This document shows, one piece after another, positions 1 through 36,407 of a stretch of DNA of 36,407 bases (position 1 is the stretch's first letter; every line of letters starts with the position of its first letter). Source of the DNA: Myxococcota bacterium (GTDB lineage: Bacteria; Myxococcota; XYA12-FULL-58-9; JABJBS01). Position numbers and translations under genes: made by a program. The stretch is taken from positions 1 to 36,407 of the forward strand of contig JAYZAY010000068.1 of assembly GCA_036339465.1 (NCBI GenBank), written 5' to 3'. Below the pieces are notes generated by a model. It was not told where the DNA came from and did no database searches. It worked only from the letters and a program-made list of their open reading frames with translations.

Positions 1-991
1 ATTCACCGATGACCACATAAGCCTCAACTTCGCTGGTGGCTACGCCACTGGTTGCTTGGTACATTTGGCTAACTGCGGCGGGGCAGTTTGGGCACCACTC
101 TGCTACGTAGGTCAGCCAAAGTGCCTTGGTGTTTCCCTTAGCAGCGTGGACTTGAACGTCCTGGCCGTTACAATTTTTGAGGGTAAATTCACCTTCCATA
201 ACTTCACCGATGCTTGCGCCTTGTCCGGCCGGTGCACCGCCGCTTTGAGCTGTTGCATCTGGATCTTCGAACGTCACGTTGAAGTTGAAGCTACTGAAGC
301 AGTAAGTTCCAGTACCACTCACGGGAAGCTGAGCATTTGGCACCATGGTTACGGCACTTAGGTTACCGGCGAAAGCTCCACCGATTTGGGCTGTGAGCGC
401 AGTCGCGGTGAGGGTTCCACCGTTGGCCATATATGCATTGGCACAGGTGTTTGGAAATCCTTGAAGATCGGAACAACCGGTAAATGCGATGGTGGCAAAT
501 CCCGCAGTTGATGCGAGGTCAAAAGTACCTGCTGCAGTGGGTGCGCCTGAACTGGTAGCGCCTTGCATAATGAGTACGTCATACCCACCTGTGGTTTGAG
601 CCACAGAGTATACGGAGTAAATGGGTCCGTACTGATCGTCTACGGAATATGTTCCGAATGTTTGTTGTCCCGCGAAAGGCTCATTGCAATCGGGTTGATT
701 GGTGGTGCCTGGATTGGTGTTTCCTGAATTATTGGTGCCTGGATTGGTGTTTCCTGAATTATTGGTGCCTGAATTGGTGTTCCCTGCATTATTGGTGCCT
801 GGATTATTGGTGCCAGCTGGATTGGGCACACTTTCTTCATTTGGGCTTACTTTTTCATCACCGCCCGTTTCCAATGAATCACCAATGGCTTTTCGAATTG
901 CGTCGGCTTCAGAATTCTTGCTACCACAGCCATAGCCTACGAGGCTTAGACCGAGAGCGATTACAAATAAACGTGCTCTTATTTTAACCAT
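1..991 (-). CDS. Lipoprotein with Asn/Gly/Thr-rich linker and C-terminal TlpA/thioredoxin-like domain (3'-truncated by window edge; absent from ORF track)
   Basis: Manual translation from ATG at 991 (RBS AAGGGGAG upstream): MVKIRARLFVIALGLSLVGYGC (lipobox), GTNNSGNTNP repeats, then EFTLKNCNGQDV...LWLTYVAEWCPNC (CxxC at 83-94). No stop before base 1. Confidence 0.85.
   Translation of the reverse strand, partial: MVKIRARLFVIALGLSLVGYGCGSKNSEADAIRKAIGDSLETGGDEKVSPNEESVPNPAGTNNPGTNNAGNTNSGTNNSGNTNPGTNNSGNTNPGTTNQPDCNEPFAGQQTFGTYSVDDQYGPIYSVYSVAQTTGGYDVLIMQGATSSGAPTAAGTFDLASTAGFATIAFTGCSDLQGFPNTCANAYMANGGTLTATALTAQIGGAFAGNLSAVTMVPNAQLPVSGTGTYCFSSFNFNVTFEDPDATAQSGGAPAGQGASIGEVMEGEFTLKNCNGQDVQVHAAKGNTKALWLTYVAEWCPNCPAAVSQMYQATSGVATSEVEAYVVIGE
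703..814 (-). repeat. Coding tandem repeat (~3.5 x 30 bp) encoding a GTNNSGNTNP-type linker
   Basis: + strand unit TGGTGCCTGGATTGGTGTTTCCTGAATTAT at 703 and 733, degenerate copies at 763 and 793. Confidence 0.85.
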
Positions 992-1220
992 TAAATATCT
1001 CCCCTTGAGAATGAAAATACCTACAATTTAGGCGATTTCGTTAAGTACAGGTGTACGCTTTTGAGCAAGTTCACCATACATATTTTTGGTTGTACTCAAT
1101 ACGAAAATGCGCCAAAAACCTTTCGCAAAAGTGCGAATGATCACAACAGACGCCGGATTACCTCATTTGGAATAAAAAAAGAAGACCAATGGAAGAATGT
1201 TTGGGTCGATAATCTCTTTC

Positions 1221-1583
1221 TTAGCTTTCTAGTTTTTCGACAATGGTGCGCATTTTTTCGCTTGAGATGGGTTTGGATACCAAGCCAAAACCGAGCGCTT
1301 CGCATTTTTCCGAAGTTTGTTCCTTAATATTGGCAGTGAGCATGGTTATATAGGCTTTTGGGGACTGCTGCTTGAGCATGGTGCCGAGCTTGAATCCATC
1401 CATTCCCGGCATATTGATATCCAAGATCATAAGATCGATTTCTGTTCCTTGGGTTTTTTTAAGGGCATCTGCTCCACTTTCAGCGGTGAGGACTTTCCAA
1501 TGGGGGTGTTGTTGGTGGAGAAACGTTTCTACCCACAGCCGCGAAACAAAGCTGTCGTCAACGATAAGTACGGTGGTCGTCAT
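1221..1583 (-). CDS. Single-domain response regulator (CheY-like receiver)
   Basis: VLIVDDS, LDINMPGMDG (phospho-Asp), MLTAN, SKP motifs; RBS GGGGAG upstream. Confidence 0.95.
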   Translation of the reverse strand: MTTTVLIVDDSFVSRLWVETFLHQQHPHWKVLTAESGADALKKTQGTEIDLMILDINMPGMDGFKLGTMLKQQSPKAYITMLTANIKEQTSEKCEALGFGLVSKPISSEKMRTIVEKLES

Positions 1584-1797
1584 AGTGTTCTCCCCCTGGT
1601 TGGGTCTATTCTAACACTTTAGCAAACTTATGCCGAGTAACCAAAATTCGAGGAAAGTTTTTCGTTAAAGGGTAGTGGAGTGGGCTAATGAGTGCTGTTG
1701 GAGGGGTATTGGGCTGTTTTTGGCACGATGCTATTGTCGTGCCTTGGGAAGTCTGGGTCGAATGGGTGAGGTCGTCATCAATGTTGGTTTATGTCTC

Positions 1798-4700
1798 TCA
1801 ATTCTTGGCACCACCACAATTCGTTACCCACCGCTTCACAAAGAGAGCATCATTGGCGTTCCAGCAGTTGACTCCTGGCGTACACCCCTTTGGCATTCGA
1901 GTGCCCTGTCCCCCGGTGGTGAGTCTCGTGTAGAACCTGGCCTGGTAGTAGCTACTGTCGGCAAAGGTGTTGGTATTGCCGTGGCATGCCGTGCTGCAAC
2001 CCGATGATGTACTGGTGCCGTTATTGGCGGTTTTGGGGCCATAGGAAAACCATGTAATCACCGCGTTGTAGATTGCCGTTCGGGCGCTACTAGAGGATGG
2101 GCATCCGATGGAAGCGTCTTCGCTGCTATCTCTACAGCCGTCTTGGTCGAAATCCTTAAATACGGAGGTCGCTCCCCAGTTTCCTTTAGCGCCCTTGCTG
2201 CACTTGTCCGGCCCCACTGAGCAGGTCCCACCTACGGCAGAATAGCCATCGCAAACACCGTCGTTGTCATCGTCTGGGTCTTCATAGGCCATGCATGTGA
2301 TTGACATCCCAACAAAACCCAAGAGGCTACAGTGGGTGTCATGACAACCGTCATCATCGTAGTCGAGGTTGTTGTCGTAGGAATTCCAGTTTTTGGCGAC
2401 GCCACTGCCGCCGGGGCAGTGATCAAACCAATTAGGTCGGTTGTCGTTGTCGTTGTCGGTGTCTTCGCCGGTAGAATCCTTACAGCCATCGTTGTCGTAG
2501 TCGAGATTGCCAAGGTTGGAGTTCCAATTCTTATAACCTTTCGGACAATCGTCGTCGATGTCATCTTGGTTGTCATTGTCATCGTCCTCGTCACAGGCAT
2601 CGCCTTGGCTGTCACTATCGTGGTTGCTTTGGTTGGCATTGCTTACGAGGGGACAATTGTCTTGGTTGTCTAGGTGCCCGTCCCCATCATCATCGTTGCT
2701 GCACGCGTTCCCTACTCCATTGTTATCCGTGTCCAATTGGGACGGGTTGGATAGGTACTGGCAATTGTCTGGACCCGACAAACAGATACCGTCTATAGCA
2801 GAAGTAGCATCACATACGCCATCGTTGTCATCATCTGGGTCCTCAGAATGAGCATCCTTGCATCCGTCGCTATCTTGGTCGTTGGCTCCCGTGGCTGTCC
2901 ATCCCGTGAGACCTCTTGAGCAGTTGTCTGATGTGTCGACAACCCCATCATTGTCATCGTCTGGGTCTTCCACATGACTGTCCTTACAGCCATCGTTGTC
3001 ATTGTCAGTGCTGAAATGGGACGTCCACCCTTTGGCGCCACGATAACATTGGTCGGGCCCATCCAAAATTCCGTCATTGTCGTCATCGTCGTCACAAGCA
3101 TTTCCCTCACTGTCGCCTTCATAATTGGTTTGACTGGGATTGCTTATCAATGGGCAGTTATCCAAAACATCAGCAACTGTATCCCCATCGTCGTCGATAT
3201 CACAGGCGTTCCCCTCATTATCTTTATCTGTATCGGTCTGACTTACATTGGATAGATATTGACAATTGTCTGGTCCCATCGAACATGTCCCTATCACCGT
3301 TTGGCTCCCATCGCAGATGGTATCATTGTCGTCATCTGGGTCTTCAGCGTGCGCATCTTTACAGCCATCGCTGTCTTGATCAGTGGCGCTATCGGACTTC
3401 CAGCCTAGAGCACCCTTTTTGCAGTCGTCCACGGTGTCGTTTACGTTGTCATTGTCATCATCTGGATCTTCAGCGTGTGCATCTTTGCAACCATCAGAAT
3501 CGTAGTCATTGACTCCATTAGATGTCCAAGAGGAATATCCCTTAGAACAAGCGTCTGAAATATCCGTCACACCATCATTGTCATCGTCGTTATCGCAGGC
3601 GTTGCCTTCGCTGTCCCCATCGTAATTACTTTGAGTCTTGTTGGGCGTCAGAGGACAGTTGTCGCTGCCATCTTTGACGGTATCGTTGTCGTCATCTTGG
3701 TCACAGGCATTGCCTTCGCTGTCCCCATCCGTATTGGTTTGAGATGGGTTTGAAACGTATTGGCAATTGTCAACTCCCGCAGAGCAGGCGCCACCCACGG
3801 CTTGGGCGCCATCACAAACTCCGTCGTTATCGTCGTCGGGATCTTCGCTGTTATTGTCCTTACAGCCATCACTGTCTCTATCGGTGGTGCTATTTGAGGT
3901 CCACGCGATGACCCCTGTGGGGCAATCGTCTACCCCATCGTTTATGCCGTCATTGTCATCATCGCTGTCGCAAGCATCCCCATTTTGGTCACCGTCGTGG
4001 TTGTTTTGGTTCGTATTGCTGATTAGGGGACAATTATCGGCCGCATTGGAGACGGTATCTCCGTCACTATCATTGGAACAAGCATTGCCTATTCCATCTC
4101 CATCGGTATCGAGTTGGTCGAGATTTTGAACGTATTGGCAGTTATCGATACCGTCATTTATCGTATCGTTGTCATCGTCAGGGTCTTCGGCGTGAGTATC
4201 TTTACAACCGTCTGAGTCATTGTCAGTGCCCGTATTGGCAGTCCAGCCTATCGCGCCTTGCGGGCATGTGTCTGCTCCATCAAGCATGCCATCGTTGTCA
4301 TCATCTGAATCACAGGCGTTGCCCACACTATCCCCGTCGCGGTTTGCTTGATCGGTGTTGCTCACCAAGGGGCAATTGTCCCCGCTGTCGTTGATGGTGT
4401 CTCCATCATCATCGTCGCTACAGGCATTGCCTATGCCATTTCCATCTGTATCTAGCTGGTTGATGTTTTGGACATATCGACAATTATCGCTGTCATCATT
4501 CACGGTATCGTTGTCGTCATCAGGGTCCTCGGTGTGGTTATCCTTACAGCCGTCTGAGTCATTGTCGGTATTTACATTGGCAGTCCAGCCAGTTGCACCT
4601 TGCGGACAGGTGTCTGGGTCATCGAACATGCCATCGTTGTCATCGTCACTGTCGCAGACGTCGCCTAGACTGTCTCCATCGTGATTTGATTGATTTTGAT

Positions 4701-7700
4701 TGCTTATTAACGGACAATTGTCTGTGCCGTCAGAGATACCGTCGCCATCATCATCATTGGCGCAGGCGTTGCCTATGCCATCCCCGTTTGAGTCTTCTTG
4801 GGCAGGGTTCGAGGTGTATTGGCAATTGTCTGGGCCTGCATTGCAGTTTCCCAAAACGCTTGGAGCACCGTCGCAAATACCGTCGTTGTCATCGTCTGGA
4901 TCTTCGGAATGCGCGTCTTTACACCCGTCATTGTCGCGGTCAGTGGTTTCGTTTGAAGCCCAATTGAGTGTACCTTTTGCACAGTTGTCGCTGATGTCAG
5001 CAAGGCCGTCATTGTCATCATCGGGATCTTCAGCATGGTTGTCCTTGCAGCCATCTGAGTCATGGTCTGTTGCTGCCCCCGAAGGCCAGTGCGCCTGCCC
5101 CTGTTTGCAGCTGTCTTGGCTATCAAGGATGCTATCGTTGTCGTCATCTGAATCACAGGCATTTCCCGCACTATCTCCATCGTGATTTGCTTGATTGGAA
5201 TTGACAAGCAGCGGGCAGTTATCGACGTTATCTTTAATGCTGTCCCCATCGTTGTCGTCGGTACAAGCATTGCCAATGCCGTCGCCGTTGGTATCTGTTT
5301 GGTTGAAATTGGCCGTGTATTGACAATTGTCGGATGAGTCATTGACGCCGTCATTATCATCATCATTGTCTTCGGCATTGTCGTCTTTACATCCATCATC
5401 GTCTTTGTCTGTTGTTCCATTGGAAGTCCAACCCGTGACTCCTTTTGAACATGAGTCGAGTCCATCGAGGATCCCGTCATTGTCGTCGTCCTGGTCTTCG
5501 GCTAGGGCGTCTTTGCAGCCATCATCGTCATGATCGCTGTTATTGTTTGCAGTCCAGCCGGCGTAACCTTTCGGGCAGCTATCCTCACCATCGAAGACAC
5601 TGTCGTTGTCGTCATCATCGTCGCATAGATCCCCGAGGGCATCTCCGTCGTGATTGCTTTGGTTGGCGTTACCGATTAAGGGACAATTGTCTACGCCATC
5701 GGTGATTGAATCTCCGTCGTCGTCGTTGGTACAAGCGTTTCCAACTCCATCATTGTCTGTGTCGATTTGGTCTGCGTTGGAGGTGTATTGGCAATTGTCG
5801 GAGTTGTCGATTATTCCGTCGTTGTCATCGTCCAAATCTTCAGCGTGGTCATCTTTGCAGCCGTCCCCATCGCGGTCTGTGGCGGCGTCGGAGCTCCAAC
5901 CAATGGCACCTTTGGTACAGTTATCCTGTGCATCGGAAACTCCGTCGTTGTCGTCATCGGGATCTTCGACATGGCTGTCTTTGCAACCGTCCCCGTCGTG
6001 GTCGTCGGTGGTGGTATCCCATGCGGTGGCGGCGTTATCTCCGTCGCATTGGTCCGAGGCATCGTTTAGCCCATCGTTATCGTCGTCGGCATCGCAGCGA
6101 TTTCCTTGGCCATCATTGTCCAAGTCCTTTTGATTTATATTGGGCACTTCGGGGCAGTTATCGGTGTTGTTACCGACGTAGTCTGTTGGTTTCAATAATG
6201 GACAAAAGAGCTGATTGTTGGTGCTCCCAAATCCATCACCATCACTGTCTAAGTAATAGATCCCTTTTCCGGGGCCTCCACATACGCCACATTCATCAGG
6301 AGAAGAGTTACAAAGATTTCCGCAAAGATATGAGGCACCCAAAATTTGTTGGGGGTTCGATGCTTTGGCTAAGCGAATGCCGCGAACTACACTTCCACCC
6401 TTACATTGGTCTGTCTCATAAGTGGTCTTATTCAGAGGTGCTCCGAGGGCTTGAAGTTCGGCTTCCGTACTGGTTGTTAACCCCCAAATGTCATCGGGTT
6501 TTTCTAAGTCTTGGCATTGAAGCCCGAGTCCTTTGAGGGTACCTGCAAGGATGGAAGTCCAGGTTGCTTGTCCCACGAGAACCTGTCCATCAGGACAGCG
6601 CAATTGAGTGTTGGGATCAGTATTGCAAGAAAAGAGGTCAATGGGGGTGGCTAGAAACTCATTGCGCAGTAGCTGGGCACCGTCGGTTTTTGAGCAGATC
6701 AGGCACATGTTTTTTGTGAGAAATATACCGCCACTTGAAACGGGAGCGAGTCCTGTTCCAACGTAACCTTCCGGACAGAAAGCGATCTCTGTGGATTGGG
6801 CGGTTATCCTGCCTGCAGGGTTCAATTTTAAAGCCACTTGACAATCATCGGAACATTCATCTCCATCGGTGGTGTTGCCGTCATCACAGCTCTCACCTAC
6901 TTCCACGAGTCCGTTACCGCAGGTGGAAATAACGACCTCGATATTGTCTAAATACCAACCACGGGGGGCAGAATTCGCAAGGGAATACAGACAGTTTTTG
7001 CAGTCCCAATTTAGGGTGAAAATCAAGTCGGGTGTTTGGGCGGCGAAGGTGGATATATCGGCTTCAACGCGGTCCCATTTCGCATCTTTGCCGTAATTGT
7101 GAAATCCGGAGGTCCCTTCATGGGGATAACAGGCTACATCGGAGGATTTACCTAAGTTGTTTAGTGGATACCGCCCTTTAGGTTCGATGGTTTCGGTGGT
7201 GTCACCACTTCTTACCTGAAGGTATGCCAGATCCTTTGCCCCAGACACTACAGGTGAACAGTATTCGCCTCCATCTAAGTCCAAATCTTGGTGGTACCTT
7301 ACCCAGATGGATTGGTGGGCACTAAGTGCGGGTAATGGCGGTAGGGAAGCTTCAAATCGAATTTTTGATGCTGTGGTGTTGGCTTGTTCTGCATATTGGA
7401 AGTGATAAGCGGGGGATTTTAGTCCAAATCCATTTTCTTTATTGATTGTACTAAGATTGACCGAAACATGTTGGTGATTAATATCGGTGTAGTTTTCTTC
7501 CCATGGATTATTATTGGAATGATTGCCATTGGCAAAGAAAAGTGAGATGCCGTCATCACATGCATCCCCCGCCTCATCTGCGCCCACAGAAAAATCAGTA
7601 TCGGCTTGGTTAGGGTTTGAAATAGCAATGCAGTTATCGCATTGATCTCCGACGCCATCGCCATCACTATCGGTTTGGTTTATGTTTGCAGCGTGGGGAC

Positions 7701-10700
7701 AGTTGTCACACCCATTGGGAACGCCGTCCTGATCTGAATCAAGGTTGTCATCGGCATTTCCACAAATATCGCAGCTATCACCACTACCGTCATTGTCACT
7801 GTCAGTTTGCGCGATGTTTGTATGCATTGGGCAGTTATCACAGACGTTTCCAACCCCGTCCTTATCAGCATCCAACTGGTTTGTGTTTTCAATCCCAGGG
7901 CAATTGTCGCATGGGTTGCCAAGGGTATCCCCATCGGCATCTACTTGGTCTGGGTTGTTGGTTGATGGGCATGAATCACATGCGTTGCCGACGCCATCAT
8001 GGTCAGTATCGGTTTGGTCTATGTTGCTCGTATTTACACAATTGTCGCAGGGGTCGCCTACCCCATCCGAATCCTTATCGTTTTGAGCACTGTTGGAGGT
8101 TGTGACACAGTTATCGCAGAGGTCACCGACAAGGTCTTTATCTTGGTCTTCTTGGTTTGGGTTTGAATGGGCGACACAATTGTCGCAAGGGTCACCAATT
8201 CCGTCTTTGTCCCCATCGGTCTGATTTGTGTTGGCATGATTGGCGCAATTATCACAGAGATCACCGACGGTATCTTTGTCAGTATCATTTTGATTACCGT
8301 TAGAGTCACTGACGCAGTTATCACATTGATTGCCGACGCCATCATTGTCTGTATCGGCTTGGTCAACATTGGAGTCATTGGGGCAATTGTCGCACACCTT
8401 ACCCACGCCGTCGGCGTCTTGGTCAGACTGATTTGGGTTTGAGGCCGCCGAGCAGTTATCACAGACATCACCTAGAGCATCGCTGTCCCCATCAGCTTGA
8501 TTCGAATTGGAAGTGGAATCGCAATTGTCACAGCGATTACCAATACCATCGCTGTCCTCATCTCTTTGGTTGGGGTTGCTGATGGACTCACAATTATCAC
8601 AGCCATCACCTACGCCATCGTTATCGTTGTCGGCTTGATTGGCATTGGAGTTAGATGGGCAGTTATCACAAACATTACCTACGCCATCGTTATCTTGATC
8701 CGCTTGCTCTGGATTATTGATAGATTGGCAATTATCGCAGCTATCTCCCACGCCATCTTTATCTAAATCTCTTTGGTTTGGGTTCTTTATGGTGACACAG
8801 TTGTCGCAGCTATTGCCGATGCTGTCGCCGTCACCATCTCTTTGGCTTGAATTGGAGGTGGTTGCGCAATTATCACAGCCATCACCTACGCCATCGCTGT
8901 CGCTGTCTTGCTGAGCTGCATTTGAATAAGTAACACAATTATCGCAGAGGTTTCCTATTCCGTCGGTATCACCATCCAATTGGTTTGGGTTGGTAGTCAC
9001 GACGCAATTGTCGCAGGCATCGCCAAATGCGTCTGAGTCACTGTTGGTTTGATTTTTATTGGTCGTCGAGACGCAATTGTCGCAGACGTCCCCCACGGTG
9101 TCCCCGTCTTGATCTCGTTGATTACTGTTGGCTGTGAGGGAACAATTGTCACAAACATCCCCCACGCCGTCAAAATCCCAATCACGTTGATTGGTGTTGG
9201 CTGTGAGCGAGCAGTTATCGCAGATATTGCCCACGCCATCAAAATCGATGTCGGCCTGGTCTGAATTCGAAGATCTCGAGCAGTTGTCGCAGTGGTCACC
9301 GACGCTGTCTGAGTCACTGTCGGCTTGATCTGTGTTGGGAGTTTGGAGGCAATTATCACAAAGGTCCCCCACGCCATCAAAATCTTTGTCTTCTTGGTTG
9401 AGATTGGCCACGGTTTGGCAGTTGTCGCAGCTATTGCCAAGTCCATCACCGTCATTATCGGTCTGACTTTTGTTTGAAATCTCAGGACAATTGTCGCAAA
9501 GGTCACCTAGGCCATCCCCATCTGTGTCAGCCTGATTGGAGGTGGAGGTAAAAGGACAATTATCGCACGCATCTCCAAAACCATCGCTGTCGCGGTCTAT
9601 TTGGGTCGTGTTGGTGGTAGCGGCGCAATTGTCGCAGGCATCTCCGATGCCATCGGCGTCTCCATCGTCTTGGTTGCTATTGGGGGCATCTACGCAGTTG
9701 TCACAGCTGTCTCCGATGCCGTCATTGTCCTCATCATTTTGGTTGCTATTAGAGTCATCTACGCAGTTATCACAGGCATCTCCGATGCCATCTCCATCTA
9801 AATCGTTTTGGTTTGTATCAAAAACATAGGGACAAACATCACATAAATCACCAATGCCATCTCCATCTGAATCTTTCTGGTTTTGGTTCGGCAAGCGGCT
9901 ACAGTTATCACAGATGTCACCGACGCCGTCATTGTCTTGGTCAGTTTGGTTGGCATTGGCATTTTGGATACAGTTGTCGCAGATATTTCCAATTCCATCA
10001 GAATCGATGTCCGTCTGAGCATTGTTGGAGGCGGAAATACAATTATCACAATGATTACCTACCCCATCGTTGTCGTTATCGGCCTGGTCCGAGTTGGATA
10101 TGCTGACGCAATTGTCACAGGTATTTCCGATGCCATCTGAATCTCCATCTCTTTGCTGGGCATTGGAGGTTGACGCACAATTGTCGCAGCTGTCGCCCAC
10201 CCCATCGTTGTCTTTGTCGTTTTGGGAGGTGTTGGAGGTCGACACACAATTGTCGCAGTTATCGCCCACCCCATCATTGTCTTTGTCGATTTGAGATTGA
10301 TTGGCGCGGTTCACACAATTGTCGCAGCTATCGCCCACCCCATCCCCGTCGCCGTCGGCTTGATTTGTATTCGGATTATTGATGCAGTTGTCGCAGCTGT
10401 CACCAAGCCCATCGGAGTCGCTGTCAAGTTGGGATTCATTGCTTGTGGATGGACAATTATCGCAGCTGTTTCCGTGGGAGTCCGAGTCGCTATTGATTTG
10501 TTCGGAGTTGGCGGTAGAAATGCAGTTGTCGCACAAATTTCCAATGCCATCCAAATCTCCGTCAAGCTGTGCTGGGTTTTCAGTGTAGGCGCAGTTGTCG
10601 CACAAATTTCCTAATCCATCGCCATCACTGTCGGTTTGGCCCATATTTGCCCTTGTTAGGCAGTTGTCGCAGATATTGCCGATTCCGTCGTTGTCGTCGT

Positions 10701-24750: not shown

Positions 24751-24774
24751 AAAAAAGGCTGCCCGAGGGCAGCC
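24751..24774 (-). terminator. Rho-independent terminator downstream of selU-pilZ
   Basis: GGCTGCC-CTCG-GGCAGCC hairpin followed by TTTTTT on the minus strand. Confidence 0.75.
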
Positions 24775-24912
24775 ATATTCTTTTTCGCAGTAACCAACCA
24801 CTATAAGATCTTACGTTCTAAACCCAAATGGTTCAAGTAAACTTTATATTTTCTATACTTTTCTAGTTTTTTAAAATGAAGCATTCTGGAACTTCGAATC
24901 CAACATCACAAA

Positions 24913-25587
24913 TTATCTGTCACGCTTGGCCCTCTCAGATGCAATAAGTTCCTCGAACAATGCCTCATCATCATAATAAAAACGGCTAATCTGAACACCA
25001 ACCCCGCGTTCAATCCCTTTTTCTCGAGCTATATGTTCATCGATAACGTAAACAACAGCTCCTTCTGCATGTAGGACAACCATCGGGCCCAAAAGATGCA
25101 CGGAAAATGGAATAACTTCGCGTAAAGAAAACTTATCCGCCGTCGGCAAGAAAATACCTCGGTGCTTCAAATTACGTTCGTACTCTTCCCAAAATCTAAC
25201 TTGGGACTCATAAGTAACAGTGAGGCGCTCCTTGAAACCACCCCGGCAGCTTTTAGACTCTGTTTCGGTAATAACTCCTTCTAAAAACTGTATATACGCC
25301 TGACTTCGTTCCAAAATTTGAACTCCCATCAAAAAAACAAACGTCAGGGTTTCTCGTTTCGCTTCTTGCCTACACCATCGAATTTCTCCCTTTAACTTTA
25401 TCTCACCAAACTCAGTAGGCACGAAAACATCTACCATCGATTTCGGTTTGAACCCCTTCTTTCCCCAAATAGCCAGCCCACCCGACGATAAGTCAACCGT
25501 AAACCCCTTCAATTTGATTCCGCCTGATTCACACCACACAGGTAGGCGACGAATAAATCGTTTATGTTCCCGATCTTTAACTGTCAT
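24913..25587 (-). CDS. Tandem PilZ-domain protein (c-di-GMP-binding PilZ plus TIGR02266-like domain)
   Basis: REHKRF (RxxxR), TVDLSSGG (DxSxxG), GEIRW, MGVQI; second domain FWEEYERNLKHRGIFLPT...AEGAVV...GVGVQ. Confidence 0.85.
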   Translation of the reverse strand: MTVKDREHKRFIRRLPVWCESGGIKLKGFTVDLSSGGLAIWGKKGFKPKSMVDVFVPTEFGEIKLKGEIRWCRQEAKRETLTFVFLMGVQILERSQAYIQFLEGVITETESKSCRGGFKERLTVTYESQVRFWEEYERNLKHRGIFLPTADKFSLREVIPFSVHLLGPMVVLHAEGAVVYVIDEHIAREKGIERGVGVQISRFYYDDEALFEELIASERAKRDR

Positions 25588-25691
25588 GACTCAGACTCTT
25601 GCATGGCAAAACTATTATAGAAACAATTACGAAAAAAACCCACAAAAAGTAAAACTGACTGACATCAACGACTCGTTGTTCCAGCGCGACA

Positions 25692-26756: not shown

Positions 26757-26762
26757 GGCCCC

Positions 26763-28238
26763 TTAAGGCATCTCCCCAAAAACTCAAGTGAGAAGTGCAA
26801 GGATTAGCTCTGAGCTTCAATCAGGCCAGCCTTAAGGCAAAGTTACCCAACAAGAGGTGTTCCTCCCTAGATTCACCGTATTTATCGCCGCTTTTTGCCT
26901 TAAGAAAAAGCGCATAGATATCGCGATATTCGATCATTCCACTCAAAATCTGTAATTGCGGAATCACAAAAGATTTCACCAAAAAGGCCTGGCCGGTCTC
27001 GGTTAATGTAATCTAAACCGAGGTCCACCATGTTGTTGGGTGCTTTTCAAAAACTTCTTCGACAGACCCATGAAAACACTCAGCTTACCCTGTATAACTC
27101 ATCTCTCGGTTCGTCTGGGCTAATATCCCACGAAGACAAACCGTAGCAGAGCCGACTGAAAAGATCTGGGATCGAATACGCACAGCCCAGCTCAACTCTT
27201 CTCATTTCTCTGGCGATTCCATAAGAGCACCTACGACATTCATGAATTCACCCGCATCGTAAGCCAGACACACCTCCCTCAACCAAATCTCGATAACCAT
27301 CAAAGTAGGTAATCACCGAAACCACGCCAAAAGCCATTACTTCCACCACCGCCAATCCAAATGTCTCCTGATAGTTCTCTGAAGGTGAGAGAAAAAATGG
27401 GAGAAACAAATGGGAGAAACAAATGGGAGAAACAAATCAATGCATCCTTATCTTCGTCGCTGGTATTGAGATAAAAGAAGATATGAGATTCCGCTCCTTT
27501 AGCCAACCGCAACATTTCGAGACAACCAGGATTATCTACACCACCCAAAAGATGTAACTCACAACCAGGAAAAGATGAAAACTGCCGAATCAATGGCAGT
27601 AAATAACACTTCGTTTTCCAATCGAGCCTTCCAACATAAAACGCCTTCCAATTTCCAGGTTTCCTCAATGTAACATAGCCCTCCCCCCCCTTCCTCCGAG
27701 GAAGAAAACGAAACCAGTAAACGATATTTTATTAACTTCGGTTTCCGCGATGGCCCAACAAAAATTTGGATACCTTTAAAAAAAGGCGGTCCAATACATC
27801 GCTCGCACTTTGCGACGTACACAAGATTCCATCACCCTCAGCAACTCGCGACGTCAAGAGATCAAAAACCGCGCCGGTAAAGCGCCGGTAGCTCAAGCGA
27901 TGCGTTAAACCAAACACCGATGTTTGGGCGCCAAATTGATTCCATATTTTCACCCAAGCCGGAAAACCATGAACAAAATCGGAGCAAAAAATTGCATCAA
28001 TCTGCCCAGATTCAAATAACTTCACCAGATCCTTCGGACTCTTGATGTTTCGAAGCCTCATTTTTGAGGATATTTCACGAGCTTCAAAAACCTATTGAGA
28101 ACACATAACGAAGGTGTCCACATTAAACCTAACCGAGCAAAGGGAAAGTATCATGTTCAAATTCGCAACGCGTCACCCCTAATGGCCCGATTCATCTAGC
28201 GAAAACGAATCACCTAAGAGGATAGATTTTGCCCCCAA
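26763..28238 (-). pseudogene. Glycosyltransferase family 4 pseudogene
   Basis: Fragments in several frames: G*RVAN, FGLTHRLS, ILCTSQSA, YVGRLDWKTK, PSENYQETFGLAVVEVMAFG..FDGYRDLVEGGVSG. Several in-frame stops and at least 3 frameshifts; 3' end approximate. Confidence 0.85.
27395..27437 (+). repeat. 3 x 13-bp tandem repeat AAATGGGAGAAAC inside the GT4 pseudogene
   Basis: Units at 27395, 27408 and 27421, plus a partial AAAT. Confidence 0.9.
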
Positions 28239-28417
28239 GATCTCCCTCCCCTCCTGAAAGCTAGCAATTCAAAAATCATATTTCCAAAGCTAGACCGAAA
28301 TGTACTACTTAACCATGGCAAGGAAAATAGACTAAATTCTATCAAAGAGTTGAATGAAGAAAACATTCCTACACACATAGTAACCAGCCCACACATACGA
28401 CAAAAACGAGGACCACC

Positions 28418-29233
28418 ATGGCTTCCTATTTTTCGAACAAAAGCGTCCTAATCACCGGTGCTGCCAGTGGCATAGGTAAAGCTGTGGCAACACGTGTCGC
28501 AAAACAAGGAGGCAAACTTGTGCTTTGGGATATCAACCAAGAGAACCTAGAAGCAACCATTAAGGAACTGGCTCCAATCGCACACCACCCACCCAAAGGT
28601 TATAAATGTGATTTAAGAAAGCGGAGCCAAATCTACAGTGTCGCGAAAAGAGTTCAAAAGCAGATTGGTGACATCGATATCCTGATTAACAATGCAGGAA
28701 TCGTGAGTGGAAAAAGTTTGCTGGATATCTCCGACGACGCCATTTCCGCAACCTTTGACGTGAACACCCTAGCTCTATTCTGGACAACACGAGCTTTTCT
28801 GCCTGCGATGATTCAACGAAACACTGGTCACATCGTCACCATGGCCAGTTCTGCAGGATTTATTGGTGCGGCTCGGCTAACGGATTACTGCTCTAGTAAG
28901 TGGGCTGCCGTAGGCTTTGACGAATCCCTCCGAATGGAACTCCGCCATACCGCTCCAGGTATTAACACAACTGTCGTTTGTCCGTTCCTAATAGACACAG
29001 GAATGTTCCAAGGTGCTCAAACTCGCTTTCCTTTTCTCCTCCCAATCCTTAAAGAGTCGAATGTTGCCGACCAAATTATCGATTCCATTGCCAAAAAACG
29101 TCAAAAACTCATTGTCCCCCCCTTTGTAAATTTGGTCCCAATCTTTCGGATTTTACCGACCGCTGTTTTCGACAAAGTCGCGGATTTCTTAGGCATCAAT
29201 GCTGCAATGGATAAATTCACCGGTAGACACTAG
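28418..29233 (+). CDS. Short-chain dehydrogenase/reductase (17beta-HSD XI / retinol dehydrogenase-like)
   Basis: TGAASGIG, LWDIN, INNAGIV, GHIVTMASSAG, DYCSSK (YxxxK), CPFLIDTGMF. Confidence 0.93.
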   Translation: MASYFSNKSVLITGAASGIGKAVATRVAKQGGKLVLWDINQENLEATIKELAPIAHHPPKGYKCDLRKRSQIYSVAKRVQKQIGDIDILINNAGIVSGKSLLDISDDAISATFDVNTLALFWTTRAFLPAMIQRNTGHIVTMASSAGFIGAARLTDYCSSKWAAVGFDESLRMELRHTAPGINTTVVCPFLIDTGMFQGAQTRFPFLLPILKESNVADQIIDSIAKKRQKLIVPPFVNLVPIFRILPTAVFDKVADFLGINAAMDKFTGRH

Positions 29234-29376
29234 AACCGGTGAACCGCTCCCCTTGCGAAACTGCCAGCATCTTCGTTATGAAGCTGTCCATTATCCAAAG
29301 ATTGGAAATTAGAAGCGCGCTACCGATATGAAACTGGCTTTTTGCGCACTCCTCACCCATCTCCGGATAACCTTAA

Positions 29377-31434
<2,058 letters not shown>

Positions 31435-31628
31435 CCTAGCCTAATCTCCACAACACCCTTCCCGGGCGGTTGCTTTACGCCAAAACAATCATCGAAAACC
31501 AACCCGTGATATCAAGCAGGGGTTGAAAACCAGGATATCAACTCCTATGAGTACACGGTTGTACCGAACAAGAAGGACAGGGTAAACCAAAAGCTCACTA
31601 AACCTAAGAACCCGGGGACCAATCTTCA

Positions 31629-33077
31629 ATGAAATTTCTTCATCCAGAACACGATCAGCACTTGGAACTGTCACTCGATGACGTTTTCATCCTACCACAA
31701 TTCCATAGCGGACAATCACGACTCAATGTCAACCTTACCCCCCTCGATGGGTTGGGCGGAGCACATCCTCTGGTTTCAGCAAACATGAATGCTGTCACCG
31801 GTAAAAGGATGGCTGAAACCATGGCCCGCTTTGGGGGTCTCGGAATTCTGCCCCAAGACATGGACCTCTCAACCGTTGAACGAATTGTCGCTTCTATCAA
31901 AACCTCCAATATTCATTACGATACTCCTCTTACAGTAACATCAGATGCAACCCTCAGAGATGTTTTGGGAATCATACGTAAACGGTCTCATGATTTGGTT
32001 GTGGTCGTGGACCAAGAGCACCGAGTGCTAGGAATCATATCTCACGCTGACCTAAGAGATAAAGATCAATACACTTCTGCATCACTTCTTATGTCCAAAT
32101 CCTTAGTCAAACTGCGGGCCGGTGTTTCAAATCGAGAAGCCTTCAATCAGCTCATGGAACATCGAGTTAAGGGAGCGCCCGTTGTCGATAAAAGTGGTCA
32201 GCTCATTGGCGTTTTGACAAGAGACGACTCCATAAGAACGGATATCCTCACTCCGAATTTAGATACGAATCAACGATTCAAGATCGGTGCAGCAGTTGGC
32301 ATATCGGCTGACGCTGCCGAGCAAGCTGAATTCCTCGTTAAGATTGGCGTGGACCATATCCTTCTTGATACAGCCCACGGGCACCAAAAACGCATGCTGG
32401 ATGCCATCAAGGATGTGCGCAAAGCGATCGGCCCATCCACAGCAATCATCGCCGGTAATGTTTGTACACGAGATGGAACCCTAGCGCTTCTTGAAGCCGG
32501 CGCAGATATCGCCAAGGTAAACGTGGGTCCTGGAGCCATGTGTACCACGCGAATGCAAACCGGAGTCGGCCGCCCAACCTTTACGTCAGCTAAGATCTGC
32601 GCAGAGGCTGCCCTAAGCGTGAATAAATATATTTGGGCAGACGGAGGGGTCCGCCATGGTAGAGACGCAGCCCTATATCTCGCTGCCGGTGCTGGCAGAG
32701 TCATGGTGGGAACAACATTCGCGGGCACTTTCGAAAGCCCTGGAGACATCAAAGAAGATAAGGACGGCCGCCTTTTCAAGGAAAATTATGGGATGGCAAG
32801 TGCTAGAGCCGTCAGATACCGCAACTCTACATTAGACCCATTTGAGCAAGCAAAAAAGGCCTTATTCAAGGAAGGAATCTCAAATTCGAGAATCTATTTA
32901 CGACAAGGAGAAGAATGCATCGGTAGCATCATCACAAATTTTATCACCGGGATTCAGTCGGCACTCACTTATACCGGCTCTTCGGACCTAAAGAACTTTC
33001 ATCAAGACGTGACTGTAGGTGTTCAAACAGCTTCGGGGTTTCACGAGGGCACACCTCATGGAAAAGTGAGAAACTAA
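31629..33077 (+). CDS. guaB1: GuaB1-family IMP dehydrogenase-related protein (probable GMP reductase) with CBS domains
   Basis: SANMNAVTGKRMAETMARFGG, LPQDM, DTAHGHQ, VGPGAMCTTRMQTGVGRP, WADGGVRH, GTFESPGD, GMASARAV, FKEGIS. Confidence 0.92.
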   Translation: MKFLHPEHDQHLELSLDDVFILPQFHSGQSRLNVNLTPLDGLGGAHPLVSANMNAVTGKRMAETMARFGGLGILPQDMDLSTVERIVASIKTSNIHYDTPLTVTSDATLRDVLGIIRKRSHDLVVVVDQEHRVLGIISHADLRDKDQYTSASLLMSKSLVKLRAGVSNREAFNQLMEHRVKGAPVVDKSGQLIGVLTRDDSIRTDILTPNLDTNQRFKIGAAVGISADAAEQAEFLVKIGVDHILLDTAHGHQKRMLDAIKDVRKAIGPSTAIIAGNVCTRDGTLALLEAGADIAKVNVGPGAMCTTRMQTGVGRPTFTSAKICAEAALSVNKYIWADGGVRHGRDAALYLAAGAGRVMVGTTFAGTFESPGDIKEDKDGRLFKENYGMASARAVRYRNSTLDPFEQAKKALFKEGISNSRIYLRQGEECIGSIITNFITGIQSALTYTGSSDLKNFHQDVTVGVQTASGFHEGTPHGKVRN

Positions 33078-33451
33078 TCTTTGCCGATCTCAGACGTTTT
33101 CTTAAAGATTAGAGCAACCGTCCCAATCTGTAACATATCACCATCATGCAGGAGCGAAGAATGACACTTTATGCCATTTAGGTACACGCCATTCTTGCTA
33201 TTCATATCTGTAAAGGAAAAACCCGATTCCCCGCACCTAAGCTCACAATGTTTGCGCGAAAGTAACTCACACTCAAAAGGCAGATCCGCGTGTTTAGAAC
33301 GACCAATCACATAGAGAGGCTCCGTCAAGTTAATCACCCGTGGACTCTCAGCCCCTTCAACTTGCTGAAGCGATGCTTTCAGAACTCTTTGCGGTTTGTC
33401 CACCAGTAAAAGACTTTTACTAACGGTTGTTGTGTCGTCCCAATCACCCAT
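33074..33451 (-). CDS. Stand-alone FHA domain protein
   Basis: IGRS, LSRKH, DMNSKNGVYLNG, LHDGDMLQIG. Start set at ATG 33451 (track ORF 33487); stop overlaps the guaB1 stop. Confidence 0.9.
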   Translation of the reverse strand: MGDWDDTTTVSKSLLLVDKPQRVLKASLQQVEGAESPRVINLTEPLYVIGRSKHADLPFECELLSRKHCELRCGESGFSFTDMNSKNGVYLNGIKCHSSLLHDGDMLQIGTVALIFKKTSEIGKD

Positions 33452-33670
33452 TTTCTCAACACCACCCACTTCAAAGAAACATCTCAATAAAGTATATTTG
33501 AAATCGCGCCTGGACCCAAGTCCTTAATGAAGTACGATAGGGAAAGGGTCTTCTCAATCCAAGCCCGATGGTTGGCGAAAAATATTGAATCATACGACGC
33601 GCCGTTTCCGGTATGCAGTGGCGGGGAAGCAGAGTTTGATTCCGTAAATTCGAGGACCGTTCTATCCCTA

Positions 33671-34569
33671 TGAGTCTGATGAGGTGATTGGACGTATCGG
33701 TGAGTCTAATGGGGTCATCTAGAACAGATGACCCGTCGCCTGGGTCGTTCAAAAAATCATTCCGCCTTAAAAACAGGGGGATTAGACTTGCTACCTACAT
33801 GGCGAAGCCCCGTGAGTTTAATAAGGTCATTGCATTTATAAGTGAGTCTAATGGGGTCATCTAGAACAAATGACCCGTCGCCTGGGCCGTTCAAAAAATC
33901 ATTCCGCCTTAAAAACAGGGGGATTAGACTTGCTACATGGCGAATGCCCGGTGAGTTTAATAAGGTCATTGGGTGTATTGCATTGAAAGCAGCTCCAGTG
34001 ATGCCAGGCGACAAATGAGATCAAAGATGATCCTTTGACCCCATTTAACTCACAGCTATTGTCGCCCATGGTTTTCTATTTCCTGAAAAGATACGGTGAC
34101 TTAACAACCTCGACGTGTGAGTGCAATTGGGTCAATAGGTTTCCATTGGGCCGAATATTTAGTTGTTACGCTCCTAAACATGTGAAAACTTATGAGCTAG
34201 CTGAGTCCTACGAGGACACTTTGGTTGCACTATGGCAGATAATTGGCATTTTAGGGTTTGTTTTATCTAAATTCGTCGTAAGTGTGTCTAGGTCTTTGTT
34301 GAGTAGAACAGGGTCAAAATCGTATAAGTATTTGAAATAAAAGTAAGTATTTTAGGATGAAAATAAAAGTTTTTGAATTAGATTGAGTCATACAGGGTCA
34401 TTTAGAGAGGGGAATAAGGTCACTAGTTGAGTGTTATGAGGGAACTAACTGAGTCATACTAGAGTAATAATGGTACGTTAAGTCCTTAATATCACTAGAG
34501 AAAATTGCCGCTAAATATTCTTAAATGAATTAAATAGATTAAACACTAACAAATCTTGAAAGATGAGAA
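33671..34569 (+). promoter_or_regulatory. Putative iteron-type replication origin (TGAGT-N7-GGTCA boxes plus AT-rich segments)
   Basis: Perfect boxes at 33701, 33813, 33843, 33952, 34036 (minus), 34118, 34300, 34384. Degenerate boxes at 33671, 34202, 34279, 34406, 34428, 34450. The last four boxes (34384-34450) are spaced exactly 22 bp. AT-rich DNA at 34317-34383 and 34467-34569, directly upstream of rep. Confidence 0.8.
33700..33971 (+). repeat. Direct duplication of ~130 bp (33700-33832 and 33842-33971), each copy with two iteron-like boxes
   Basis: GTGAGTCTAATGGGGTCATCTAGAAC...AAAAACAGGGGGATTAGACTTG...GTGAGTTTAATAAGGTCATTG occurs twice with few differences. Confidence 0.92.
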
Positions 34570-36039
34570 ATGGTTCACAAAAGTAAAGTCAGAAAAGTAA
34601 CACACCAACAACTAGACCTCATCGAACAAGTAGATGAAGTTGCTTTTGATGAAATGAATCTCGTTGAGTTACCCTTTGCATTGCTCACCGATGCAAAAGA
34701 AGCACGCCAAAAACCCGTAGTAGAAGTTCCTCTTGGCCCCGATGGTACAGAAGCACTGGTAACCCATGGTCGCGGAAGTGTTCCCACAGCTCTTGCGGAA
34801 CGCGTCGTCTTGGGACTTTTGTGGCTAACCCAACAGGAAAGTGGTTTTAAGGAAGCAGTGGTTCGGTTCCCTCTTCGGCGATTGGTGGAAGATTATATGT
34901 ATCCTGGGCGGTTCCAGCAGAATCGAGCCAGTGGGGTATTTATGCAGCGAGTTGAAGAAGAAATTAATCGCGTTGCGGATACGAGAATTCATTCCGAGCG
35001 CTGGTATGACAAGGAACTCGGTAAACAGACAAAAATGAATGCGGCGATTATTGATTATATTCAAGTCGTTCATGAGGGTGGTCGAAACAGCGCAAGAGTG
35101 GTTGAAGTTCGTTGGGGAGCAAAACTATTTAAGAGTGTTCAAGCTCGTTATACAAAATCGTTGGATGTACGTACGATTTTACGAATTGAGCGGCCCATGG
35201 ACTTGCGATTCTATCGCTGGCTTGACCGACAATTGGCACGCAAAGTAAGGGAGAGCGTGGCGTCATGCCAAAACTTTGCGAAATTTAAGCTGCTTATGCG
35301 TGGCCAAAAAATTGATCGAGGGGGACGGACAGCCTCAAGCTATATCGTTCGTAAGTTGTCAGAATCGTTAGAACGGTTGGATGATATAGGTTTTTCAGTA
35401 CGGATGACCGTTGATCAGAGCCGGCCAGATTCTCGATTGGTTTTTGAGAAAATTAGCGGCCTGCATAATGAATGTGTTTCGCGGGATGATGCGGCAGAGT
35501 TGTTTCGGGTTTTTCAGGAAGAAGCCCACGGGTTGCCAAAGAACGCAGAGGTTAAGCGAATTTCGAAACCAGAGCGCGAGGATGCGACCCGTTGGTTAGA
35601 TGACTACGGATTTGACCAGGCGGTTTGGATGGTGCGTAGATGTATTGAGCTGCACAATAGGGCGCGTCGCGGGGCGGATACCTTGTTTCGCTTTAAAGCC
35701 TTGGGTTTCTATGAAGCAAAAGCCATGGCGGATTTCGAGATTAGTGAGAAAAAACAAGCAGAGTTGCCCTTTGAAGAGTCGAAATCTGTGGAGGAAGCTT
35801 GGGATAGCTATCGATTCCAAGAGGTAGAAAAAGCCCGTGAAAATTTGAGTCCGCAAGAATTGGTTGCTTTAGAGGCACTCGCTCAAAGCGAGGTTGAGGT
35901 GGAGATGAATAAGGCGAGGTTAAGAACACCTCGGAGTGCATTGAATGCAATCGTCCAAGCAAAATTGGAGGAGATGTTGGTGGCGAAAGTGGACGGGTTA
36001 ACGGAAGAGGAATTTTTTCGGCAATGGAAACCTTCTTGA
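34570..36039 (+). CDS. repA: Plasmid-type replication initiator protein (RPA / replication initiator protein A family)
   Basis: N-terminal DEMNLVELPFALL, then GSVPTALAERVVLGLL, ERWYDKE, VRWGAKLFKSVQARYTKSLD, RFYRWLD. This pattern matches Planctomycete/Deinococcus-type RPA initiators as recalled; adjacent iteron-like boxes support the call. Confidence 0.8.
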   Translation: MVHKSKVRKVTHQQLDLIEQVDEVAFDEMNLVELPFALLTDAKEARQKPVVEVPLGPDGTEALVTHGRGSVPTALAERVVLGLLWLTQQESGFKEAVVRFPLRRLVEDYMYPGRFQQNRASGVFMQRVEEEINRVADTRIHSERWYDKELGKQTKMNAAIIDYIQVVHEGGRNSARVVEVRWGAKLFKSVQARYTKSLDVRTILRIERPMDLRFYRWLDRQLARKVRESVASCQNFAKFKLLMRGQKIDRGGRTASSYIVRKLSESLERLDDIGFSVRMTVDQSRPDSRLVFEKISGLHNECVSRDDAAELFRVFQEEAHGLPKNAEVKRISKPEREDATRWLDDYGFDQAVWMVRRCIELHNRARRGADTLFRFKALGFYEAKAMADFEISEKKQAELPFEESKSVEEAWDSYRFQEVEKARENLSPQELVALEALAQSEVEVEMNKARLRTPRSALNAIVQAKLEEMLVAKVDGLTEEEFFRQWKPS

Positions 36040-36111
36040 GTGGGGCGTTTGTCTCTCCCCTTCCCTGCTTCGAGATTAGCGCGGATCAGCGACTTAATCG
36101 GATATAGTAAG

Positions 36112-36407
36112 TAGGATTTCAGAACTAGGATTTCAGAACTAGGATTTCAGAACTAGGATTTCGGAACTAGGATTTCAGAACTAGGATTTCAGAACTAGGA
36201 TTTCAGAACTAGGATTTCGGAACTAGGATTTCGGAACTAGGATTTCGGAACTAGGATTTCGGAACTAGGATTTCGGAACTAGGATTTCAGAACTAGGATT
36301 TCAGAACTAGGATTTCAGAACTAGGATTTCGGAACTAGGATTTCGGAACTAGGATTTCGGAACTAGGATTTCGGAACTAGGATTTCAGAACTAGGATTTC
36401 AGAACTA
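36112..36407 (+). repeat. Non-coding tandem array, 21 x 14 bp TAGGATTTCRGAAC, running off the window end
   Basis: 21 full units plus TA. The single variable position reads A,A,A,G,A,A,A,G,G,G,G,G,A,A,A,G,G,G,G,A,A. Confidence 0.97.

Follow-up and report, generated by a model that had tools for sequence, protein, structure and literature searches.

Strand-composition flips and a plasmid-type origin on a contig of an uncultured Myxococcota bacterium: possibly part of a large secondary replicon

What kind of molecule does a stretch of bacterial DNA belong to when its strand composition reverses twice and one of the two reversals falls on a plasmid-type replication module? This question is raised by contig JAYZAY010000068.1 of a Myxococcota bacterium (hereafter C68), which was analysed over its entire length of 36,407 bp (the window). 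C68 is one of the 102 contigs of a draft genome of 4.17 Mb (G000; contig numbers without a prefix, such as C4, C12, and C68, belong to this genome). The original prediction regarded the window as most of a bidirectionally replicating circle of 36–40 kb, with an origin at ~34 kb and a terminus at ~17.1 kb. The explanation that we tentatively favor here is that the window may hold the origin–terminus region of a separate, large plasmid-derived replicon (chromid or megaplasmid) with nearly unidirectional replication.

Nearly all contigs of G000 have a strong skew of a single sign (~0.1–0.2 in absolute value). The GC skew at third codon positions (GC3 skew) was surveyed genome-wide using open reading frames (ORFs) of at least 300 amino acids on contigs of at least 30 kb, with flip-containing contigs left out. 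On the G-rich strand (671 ORFs) the coding-strand GC3 skew was +0.18, and on the opposite strand (559 ORFs) it was -0.31. The skew in G000 therefore tracks the strand and not the gene, as a replication-type asymmetry does, and the GC3 skew is strong enough for polarity to be called gene by gene.

Two flips of the plus-strand skew, independent of gene direction, had been proposed from six 60-nt samples counted by hand. The recount reproduced all six samples exactly (22G/12C, 19G/7C, 6G/23C, 5G/24C, 7G/13C, and 22G/10C), and both flips were confirmed by the cumulative skew and by the GC3 skew. Cumulative G-C reaches its maximum at position 17178 and a later minimum at 33523, after which it climbs again; the intervening fall amounts to 1009, whereas the falls obtained by shuffling 500-nt blocks 1000 times averaged 501 and never exceeded 763. 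The GC skew by segment was +0.042 (1–17100), -0.131 (17101–33500), and +0.202 (33501–36407). Within the first segment it was +0.125 for 12409–17100 and -0.001 inside a giant gene with thrombospondin type 3 (TSP_3) repeats at 1798–12408. This giant gene is a poor marker of polarity owing to gene-specific codon bias, its coding-strand GC3 skew of -0.61 lying far past the lagging-strand mean of the genome. The AT skew changed from -0.16 to +0.12 at 17.1 kb and did not reverse at 33.5 kb. Plus-strand GC3 skew ranged from +0.24 to +0.61 in all seven genes at 2–16971, every one of which is on the minus strand, and from -0.04 to -0.47 in all 18 genes at 17196–33487, which lie on both strands; that of rep, the replication initiator gene near the right end, was +0.30. 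Fine profiles mapped the flips to the intergenic gap at 17.1 kb (Table 1) and to 33.5 kb, just beyond the start of the FHA gene, a distance of 16.3–16.9 kb. The border at 17.1 kb is sharp, the GC3 skew jumping from +0.38 to -0.47 between its two flanking genes, and the negative block has no gradient, its skew being undiminished from FHA (-0.38), beside the iterons, to pomA (-0.47), at the opposite end. Flips are not unique to C68, as segmentation of the skew placed 14 of them in 11 of the 102 contigs. An assembly chimera at 17.1 kb was considered and rejected, since proteins 99% identical to those encoded on either side (DUF255, 771/773; response regulator at 20141–20839, 229/232) are recorded on a JGI/IMG contig of 6,983 bp; judging by the equal sizes recorded, both would sit on one contig that spans the border.

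The origin-like, C-to-G flip begins at 33.5 kb, at the start of a region with eight copies of the bipartite box TGAGT-N7-GGTCA, compared with 0.03 expected; none of 100 shuffles reached eight. Four of the boxes lie within a 142-bp tandem duplication at 33700–33971 identified by Tandem Repeats Finder (TRF), and only seven further boxes occur in the whole 4.17-Mb genome outside C68. Boxes were also seen inside a Big_5/dihaem-cytochrome gene a few kilobases 3' of rep, at 2401 and 3241 on C4 and at 8858 on a contig of a relative (G001:C152, also L036). The A+T-rich stretch between the last boxes and rep is a candidate DNA-unwinding element (DUE). Matches to the DnaA box with at most one mismatch numbered 12 in the window compared with 8.9 expected, and none fell between 33.5 and 34.57 kb. 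Downstream of rep, an array of 14-bp units runs to the contig end (TRF: 21.1 copies, 97% matches), and its unit was found in no other contig of G000. The core motif ATTTCNGAA has 21 of its 25 window matches within this array. It also clusters between parA and rep in G001:C152 (14 of 19 matches) and after rep at two loci of relatives, L039 (7 of 10) and L056 (3 of 7), so the array is probably an amplified form of ATTTCNGAA sites that serve as a partition or operator site. A parA gene together with a small gene lies directly 3' of rep in G001 and G019, and in G000 parA may lie past the right contig end, with the array as the site of its operon. Elsewhere in G000 the best matches to the parA partner had 25–31% identity, and none of them was at a fitting contig end.

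The window Rep protein matched no family of its own in Pfam (E-values up to 5) or NCBIfam. Of 25 aligned Rep homologs, 15 matched PF10134 ("replication initiator protein A," RPA), with a best E-value of 1.6e-13, and the Rep family profile aligned by hhalign with the annotated RPA of a 34-kb Isosphaeraceae plasmid over residues 23–298 (98.7%, E-value 1.6e-16). A search of PDB sequences using the family profile gave no match (best E-value 0.2). The AlphaFold2 model of Rep had a mean pLDDT of 83.1; when it was searched by Foldseek, domains 2–3 of RctB ranked first (E-value 2.2e-6, TM score 0.57 on the target), followed by RepE54, a complex of Rep with a DUE, and complexes of Pi with iterons (E-values about 0.01–0.02). 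The C-terminal ~190 residues are helical and had no match. On the modeled fold, Rep is predicted to be a tandem winged-helix initiator of the kind used by iteron-type theta replicons (RepE, Pi, RctB), and binding of the boxes and initiation of replication by Rep are likewise predicted. With its long helical C-terminal part, the protein appears to represent a distinct, unrecognized branch of RPA-like initiators.

The module was compared with related genomes (G001, G002, G004, G008, and G019) and with individual loci of relatives or of G000, which carry L-numbers (L039 = G004:C153, L040 = G019:C161, L041 = G008:C97). Orthologs of rep with 56–66% identity were present in G001, G004, G019, G008, and at L056; counting G000, six of the 41 genomes searched have the gene. 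Upstream of rep, 3–6 boxes were found in G001:C152, L039, L040, L041, and L056. The repeated sites thus stand beside the gene and are conserved with it, as expected of an iteron-type initiator. The neighboring genes are conserved as well (protein identities: fadH 71–72%, guaB1 67–68%, FHA 46–50%, SDR 60%, and selU 49%). At L056, fadH (71%), guaB1 (67%), and FHA (48%) precede the boxes and rep, at L039 guaB1 and FHA do so, and G001:C377 has selU, SDR, fadH, guaB1, and FHA in the order and orientation of the window. The iteron junction is supported by those relatives that have FHA, boxes, and rep on single contigs. Read in the orientation of rep, the GC3 skew of the upstream ORFs was -0.24 to -0.45 at L056 (one of the seven being +0.02) and -0.09 to -0.31 at L039, compared with +0.19 and +0.16, respectively, for rep itself; the two loci combined have the left-arm sign in 11 of 12 ORFs left of the iterons. 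The left-arm sign was also found in 11 of 12 ORFs across 13.2 kb of G001:C377, and the nucleotide skew of G001:C152 has the right-arm sign throughout the 18 kb downstream of rep. Synonymous sites are expected to be saturated at 65–72% protein identity, and the third-position skew common to four lineages would therefore most simply be one that is still being made.

These comparisons uphold the proposed Rep/iteron origin at ~34 kb, since the C-to-G flip coincides with the module and genus-level relatives have kept its boxes, the left-arm genes, and the polarity. The flip looks like a genuine plasmid-style replication origin as far as sequence can tell, and we infer that it fires today. Two other explanations were set aside. 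A recent inversion was dropped as the main explanation, given the synteny and polarity common to L056, L039, and G001:C377 and the lack of an inverted repeat at the borders. Nor is it likely that 17.1 kb marks the terminus of the chromosome and that rep forms just a small island of its own, because the nucleotide skew of G001:C152 still has the rep-side sign up to 18 kb past rep.

That the window is most of a circle of 36–40 kb, closed by joining the 14-bp array to base 1, has several points in its favor: the arms of 16.9 and 19.5 kb are nearly equal, the array is absent from other contigs, the 27.4-kb scaffold formed by C34 and C90 also has near-equal arms, RPA plasmids of 25–132 kb with giant surface-protein genes exist in Planctomycetes, and a related contig (L042) closes on itself at 18.45 kb. 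The contig ends nevertheless make this circle very improbable. The two ends of C68 neither overlap by 11 nt or more nor have any 15-mers in common. The thioredoxin-like gene cut at base 1, whose Pfam AhpC-TSA match is interrupted by the contig end (profile positions 7–65 of 124), needs at least 94 more codons, and the array cannot supply them, as its minus strand has stops in all three frames. The missing codons are on C12. In a blastn alignment the ends of C68 and C12 overlap with 94.55% identity over 789 columns (37 mismatches and two in-frame 3-nt indels), and the outer parts of the overlap are identical (the first 118 nt and the last ~121 nt). The two copies are best read as alleles of one locus, with the molecule continuing into C12. 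P0097, an independent protein of 424 amino acids found in other assemblies, matches the C68 product over residues 1–330 and the C12 reading frame over its last 94 residues, with 100% identity in both cases; it is recorded from a contig of 6,331 bp, a size also given for the contig with a 99% identical copy of the next gene on C12. Relatives were uninformative on this link, as the thioredoxin-like gene belongs to a multi-copy family with ~30% identity.

G000 contains 35 head-to-tail overlaps between contig ends, which are 38–789 bp long and have 87–100% identity. Polarity is consistent across 32 of the 35 overlaps, and across 26 of the 27 whose two end skews are both larger than 0.05; overlaps of this kind therefore join true neighbors that were split where strains vary. 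C68 is accordingly joined on its left to C12. As a separate observation, end overlaps alone would allow much further scaffolding of the G000 draft. On the right, G001:C152 has the gene order rep, parA, a small gene, kinase, FHA, a 253-aa gene, a 214-aa gene, Big_5/cytochrome, and two giant genes. The five genes from the 253-aa gene onward, located 4–16 kb past rep, match the left end of C4, and not that of C68, in the same order and orientation, and base 1 of C4 falls inside the ortholog of the 253-aa gene. C4 would thus lie beyond the 14-bp array. The smallest contig in the G000 bin is 5,449 bp, and the missing piece with parA between the array and C4 is expected to be shorter than 5 kb.

Continuation on both sides means that the closed circle was not borne out, C12 extending the left end and C4 being placed on the right, and that the near-equal arms are an accident of where the contig ends. 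It also carries a warning: a draft contig may have skew flips and arms of nearly equal length without being a closed circle. The scaffold of C12, C68, the missing piece, and C4 comes to about 147 kb. Its polarity is positive for 61.8 kb, negative for 16.9 kb, and positive again for at least 64 kb in contigs (~69 kb including the unassembled piece). C12 carries ordinary cargo over its 44.7 kb, and 27 of its 31 ORFs have the polarity of the left part of the window; the 61.2 kb of C4 have the positive, rep-side GC3 skew in 37 of 40 ORFs. This is the layout of a unidirectional chromid, in which the terminus is near the origin and a single polarity prevails elsewhere.

In the explanation we favor, forks would set out from the iterons to both sides. 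The one moving left would copy only the 16.9-kb block up to a terminus at 17.1 kb, making the plus strand C-rich there, and the rightward fork would copy the rest, leaving the DNA beyond both flips uniformly G-rich. The replicon would comprise at least ~80 kb, and probably ~147 kb or more. Chromids combine plasmid-type replication with a host-like composition and core genes. C68 has a plasmid-type replication system in its boxes, RPA-like initiator, and predicted fold, and its composition is host-like, with a G+C content of 0.476 compared with 0.46–0.52 across the other 101 contigs and a GC3 skew of the genome-wide size. The earlier suggestion of a chromid holds for the plasmid-type origin and the chromosome-like cargo, but not for the small size, the window being part of what would be a far larger replicon. 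A replicon separate from the dnaA chromosome is favored because initiator, sites, and partition motif are intact across genera, because the ~142 kb of the window, C12, and C4 were seen to have no tRNA, ribosomal, or other universal core gene, and because the patchy occurrence of the kit is as expected for replicons that are often lost in binning.

The flips might instead be inherited and the origin silent now, the window being a passive relic of a fused plasmid or small chromid, or of an inverted 17-kb segment; this is possible although somewhat unlikely. Fused chromosomes retain the skew peaks of both parents, according to the accessible part of a published account (PMC8729776). The sharpness of the border at 17.1 kb, the loss of the partner gene of pomA exactly there, and the single polarity of both flanks (~62 and ~64 kb), as for an inverted or inserted block, are in line with such an origin. 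So are the plasmid-like kits in chromosome-like DNA elsewhere in the genome (with an integrase on C86 and restriction-modification genes on C21) and an element of zero skew that runs into skewed DNA on C77. A relic is difficult to reconcile with the left-arm genes, boxes, and two-sided polarity common to G000, G001, L039, and L056 at 46–72% protein identity, a divergence across which third-codon skew should have decayed, or with the intact Rep, iterons, and downstream motif cluster in all these lineages. The skew of the block is moreover as strong at pomA as at FHA, a search for an inverted repeat joining the 17.1-kb and 33.5-kb borders found none, and genes for integrases, transposases, or tRNAs are absent from the window.

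The idea that further kits of this kind exist in the genome proved correct: G000 has four Rep paralogs (Table 1) and other ParA/iteron modules. A parA gene adjoins three of the four paralogs. The rep of C86 is followed by a tyrosine integrase and that of C21 is flanked by two type IIG-like restriction-modification genes. All four paralogs have a GC3 skew near zero, compared with +0.30 for the window rep. Of the eight origin-like flips in G000, four have a Rep or ParA module no more than 3 kb away (C68, C21, C34, and C16), for which the probability by chance is ~4e-6 (at least four such flips with 11 kits in 4.17 Mb, C91 being left unannotated). On C34 (L050), ~20 copies of a 22–25-bp repeat at 8500–9400 occupy a 1.5-kb noncoding gap exactly at a C-rich to G-rich flip, and this gap adjoins parA and two genes of unknown function. 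C34 and C90 are joined by an exact 42-bp end overlap, with a terminus-like flip ~15 kb further on, in C90; no ORF running off the right end of C90 was found that would bear on closure of this scaffold. The left ends of C50 and C77 have a 12-bp tandem array in common, in opposite orientation, and are probably joined there. A parA gene begins 380 bp into C77, and C50 and the first 10 kb of C77 are almost unskewed, after which C77 is G-rich, as though a plasmid-like element of more recent origin had come to lie against native DNA.

The kits bring in the reading that the iterons are a second active origin within the dnaA chromosome, whose leftward fork runs for 16.9 kb against the main fork as far as a fixed barrier; we consider this clearly unlikely. 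The reversed block is on the side expected if the main fork arrives from C12, the same geometry recurs at all four module-linked flips (C68, C21, C34 with C90, and C16), dnaA is present in a single copy, on C30, and the conserved polarity argues for firing. A collision zone set by timing alone should, however, be diffuse, whereas the edge at 17.1 kb is sharp and the block has no gradient; neither a barrier nor a dif-like element was found using the Escherichia coli dif form and the 12-mers of four terminus-like flips. In Vibrio, natural fusions are known in which two origins are active, but we know of no natural bacterial chromosome described as having several short replichores driven by plasmid-type origins. 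In its wider form, in which the origins of C68, C21, C34, and C16 all fire inside the dnaA chromosome and each has a reversed replichore of 10–17 kb ending at a fixed barrier, this reading seems quite improbable. If true, it would mean a natural multi-origin bacterial chromosome that is conserved across genera.

Several observations weigh against a separate, nearly unidirectional replicon. The right-hand G-rich stretch inside the window is only 2.9 kb long and consists of noncoding DNA, rep, and the array; C4 is placed beyond it by synteny with one relative, with no overlap, and G001:C377 and G001:C152 are not physically joined in the data examined. No dif-like site was found in the window using the E. 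coli dif form with up to eight mismatches, a form that may not be that of the host, and no 12-mer was common to the four terminus-like flips compared. At its 17.1-kb edge, pomA lacks the partner gene of ~315 amino acids that follows pomA in G002:C65, in G001:C414, and in a paralogous cluster on C43, which suggests a lineage-specific breakpoint rather than an old terminus. Three of the five Rep loci (C86, C45, and C5) have no flip, and the C21 kit, which has 21–22-bp iterons, repeats the layout of C68 within a scaffold that spans 142 kb or more. If each kit were a separate chromid, the 4.2-Mb genome would need four or more of them. The skew of L042, the sole related contig that closes on itself, is weak and untidy, and the presence of the rep kit in six of 41 genomes may also be counted on this side.

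Table 1. Features of the window (C68) and paralogous rep genes in the same draft genome.
Feature	Position	Strand	Description
G-rich (positive polarity) segment	1–17178		Response regulator, 3,536-aa TSP_3, ASCH, FBPase, and DUF255/thioredoxin-like genes, all on the minus strand
End overlap with C12	1–786		C12 786–1, reverse strand
Thioredoxin-like (AhpC/TSA-like) secreted protein gene	2–991	-	3' end lost at contig end, 330/424 codons
G-to-C (terminus-like) flip	16972–17195		224-bp gap from DUF255 gene start to pomA stop
C-rich (negative polarity) block, 16.9 kb	17196–33487		Negative plus-strand GC3 skew in 18/18 genes
Cargo genes	within 17196–33487		selU (mnmH), SDR, fadH-like, guaB1, FHA, pomA, two divergent motB, response regulator, kinase-like, methyltransferase, PilZ, glycosyltransferase fragments
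Iteron region	33701–34400		Eight TGAGT-N7-GGTCA boxes, seven on plus and one on minus strand
A+T-rich stretch	34200–34600		G+C 0.31–0.345, between last boxes and rep
rep	34570–36039	+	489-aa predicted initiator, distant RPA-family member, modeled tandem winged-helix fold
14-bp array	36112–36407		21 copies, two unit variants, runs to contig end
Rep paralog, C86	8820–10298	+	55% identity to window Rep
Rep paralog, C45	7648–9012	-	41% identity to window Rep
Rep paralog, C21	24541–25962	-	35% identity to window Rep
Rep paralog, C5	4320–5846	+	28% identity to window Rep

The cargo of the window had been described as chromosome-like and free of relaxase, transposase, integrase, and toxin-antitoxin genes, and a Pfam search of 27 window ORFs agrees, no such domain being found. 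Of the genes named for a single-copy check, selU and fadH (as well as FBPase) have no second copy within G000 at an E-value of 1e-10 and more than 80 bits, but pomA does, with a paralog on C43. Paralogs were also found for motB (C43), guaB1 (a guaB with 35% identity on C24), and the DUF255 gene (35%, C89). On the pomA side, nothing beyond the four-gene stator cluster was syntenic in relatives.

Further features were noted among the genes. The giant ORF (1798–12408, minus strand) encodes 3,536 amino acids with at least 19 thrombospondin type 3 repeats and contains 69-bp DNA repeats. The two divergent motB genes of the stator cluster (17196–19893) share a 57-nt inverted repeat at their 5' ends that is 88% complementary. 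Two short ORFs at 27300–28061 (minus strand) weakly match the N- and C-terminal halves of a glycosyltransferase and are probably a broken gene; a 13-bp repeat of 3.8 copies is located nearby at 27389–27437. The ORF at 20141–20839 (plus strand) joins a response-regulator receiver domain to a C-terminal portion whose match to the ArdA antirestriction family is barely above the Pfam cut-off (E-value 7.8e-7, 30.3 bits, cut-off 27). Outside G000, the 18,592-bp contig L042 of a Myxococcota metagenome-assembled genome has a 139-bp terminal direct overlap, by which it closes as a circle of 18.45 kb, and carries a Rep homolog (39%), 22-bp iterons, and parA-like genes. L061 (18,193 bp) is the same element in another assembly at 99.98–100% identity, with fewer iteron copies.

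Near-identical window sequence was present in four marine or seawater metagenome runs from four studies, as short Logan contigs with a depth of ~2–8. Among the matches listed, which are pieces of at most 1.9 kb, none spanned either flip or the 14-bp array and no strand-changing joint was seen. An exact-pattern scan of metagenome contigs using a 34-nt stretch of a shared gene gave no match, and a scan of viral contigs using the Rep profile gave no relative.

Plasmids are known from only two Myxococcota organisms, according to the accessible part of a 2024 paper (PMC11705834), and a literature search on Myxococcota chromids and plasmid replication initiators, judged by titles and abstracts, yielded no report of such a replicon. 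The locus points to a distinct RPA-like initiator branch in several uncultured marine Myxococcota that comes with iterons, a putative partition-site motif, and metabolic neighbor genes, all of them conserved. If the origin fires, it would belong to a vertically kept secondary replicon, or be a second origin, with highly asymmetric replication. A replicon of this type would be a second, independent case of near-unidirectional replication in a large replicon and could serve as a starting point for vectors in uncultured or hard-to-transform myxobacteria.

A tblastn search of PLSDB placed Rep relatives on nine records at 22–31% identity, all of them Planctomycetes plasmids of 25–132 kb, three of which are in one strain. 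The N-terminal half of Rep (residues ~23–298) is homologous to the initiators of RPA plasmids such as pEP7_04 (CP151671.1, 34 kb) and pSINAC01 (NC_019893.1, 55 kb) of Isosphaeraceae. A parA gene adjoins rep in pSINAC01 and is located in its vicinity in pEP7_04, and giant surface-protein genes are present on both plasmids. Unlike these initiators, the window Rep matches no Pfam model on its own and its C-terminal ~190 residues are unmatched, and none of the plasmids is from Myxococcota. They were also tried as a control for the skew, which proved too weak in them to inform on the mode of replication. With RctB of Vibrio cholerae chromosome 2, RepE of mini-F, and Pi of R6K, the window Rep has in common the modeled fold and an upstream region of direct-repeat sites with an A+T-rich stretch; it differs in its sequence (9–15% identity) and in its box, which is bipartite (5+7+5 nt) and irregularly spaced.

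Two larger systems come closer in their layout. In the Cupriavidus necator KK10 fusion, as presented in the accessible part of its description (PMC8729776), a plasmid-type skew pattern is likewise embedded in a longer molecule, but that fusion is recent and occurred across rRNA operons, whereas the layout of the window is common to genus-level relatives and has no border repeat. For the chromids of Pseudoalteromonas, the portion of the source available (PMC7858055) states that in most of them dif2 is located ~4–27 kb from ori2 and that replication is unidirectional, as confirmed by read depth and dif2 sites. The window resembles these chromids in its plasmid-type origin, in a proposed terminus kilobases away (16.9 kb here), in the otherwise single polarity, and in its chromosome-like cargo; it differs in phylum and in initiator family, and its unidirectionality is suggested by skew, with no dif-like site found. 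Compared with the known systems, the points of difference here are the phylum, the unrecognized initiator branch, the bipartite box, and the conserved neighbor genes.

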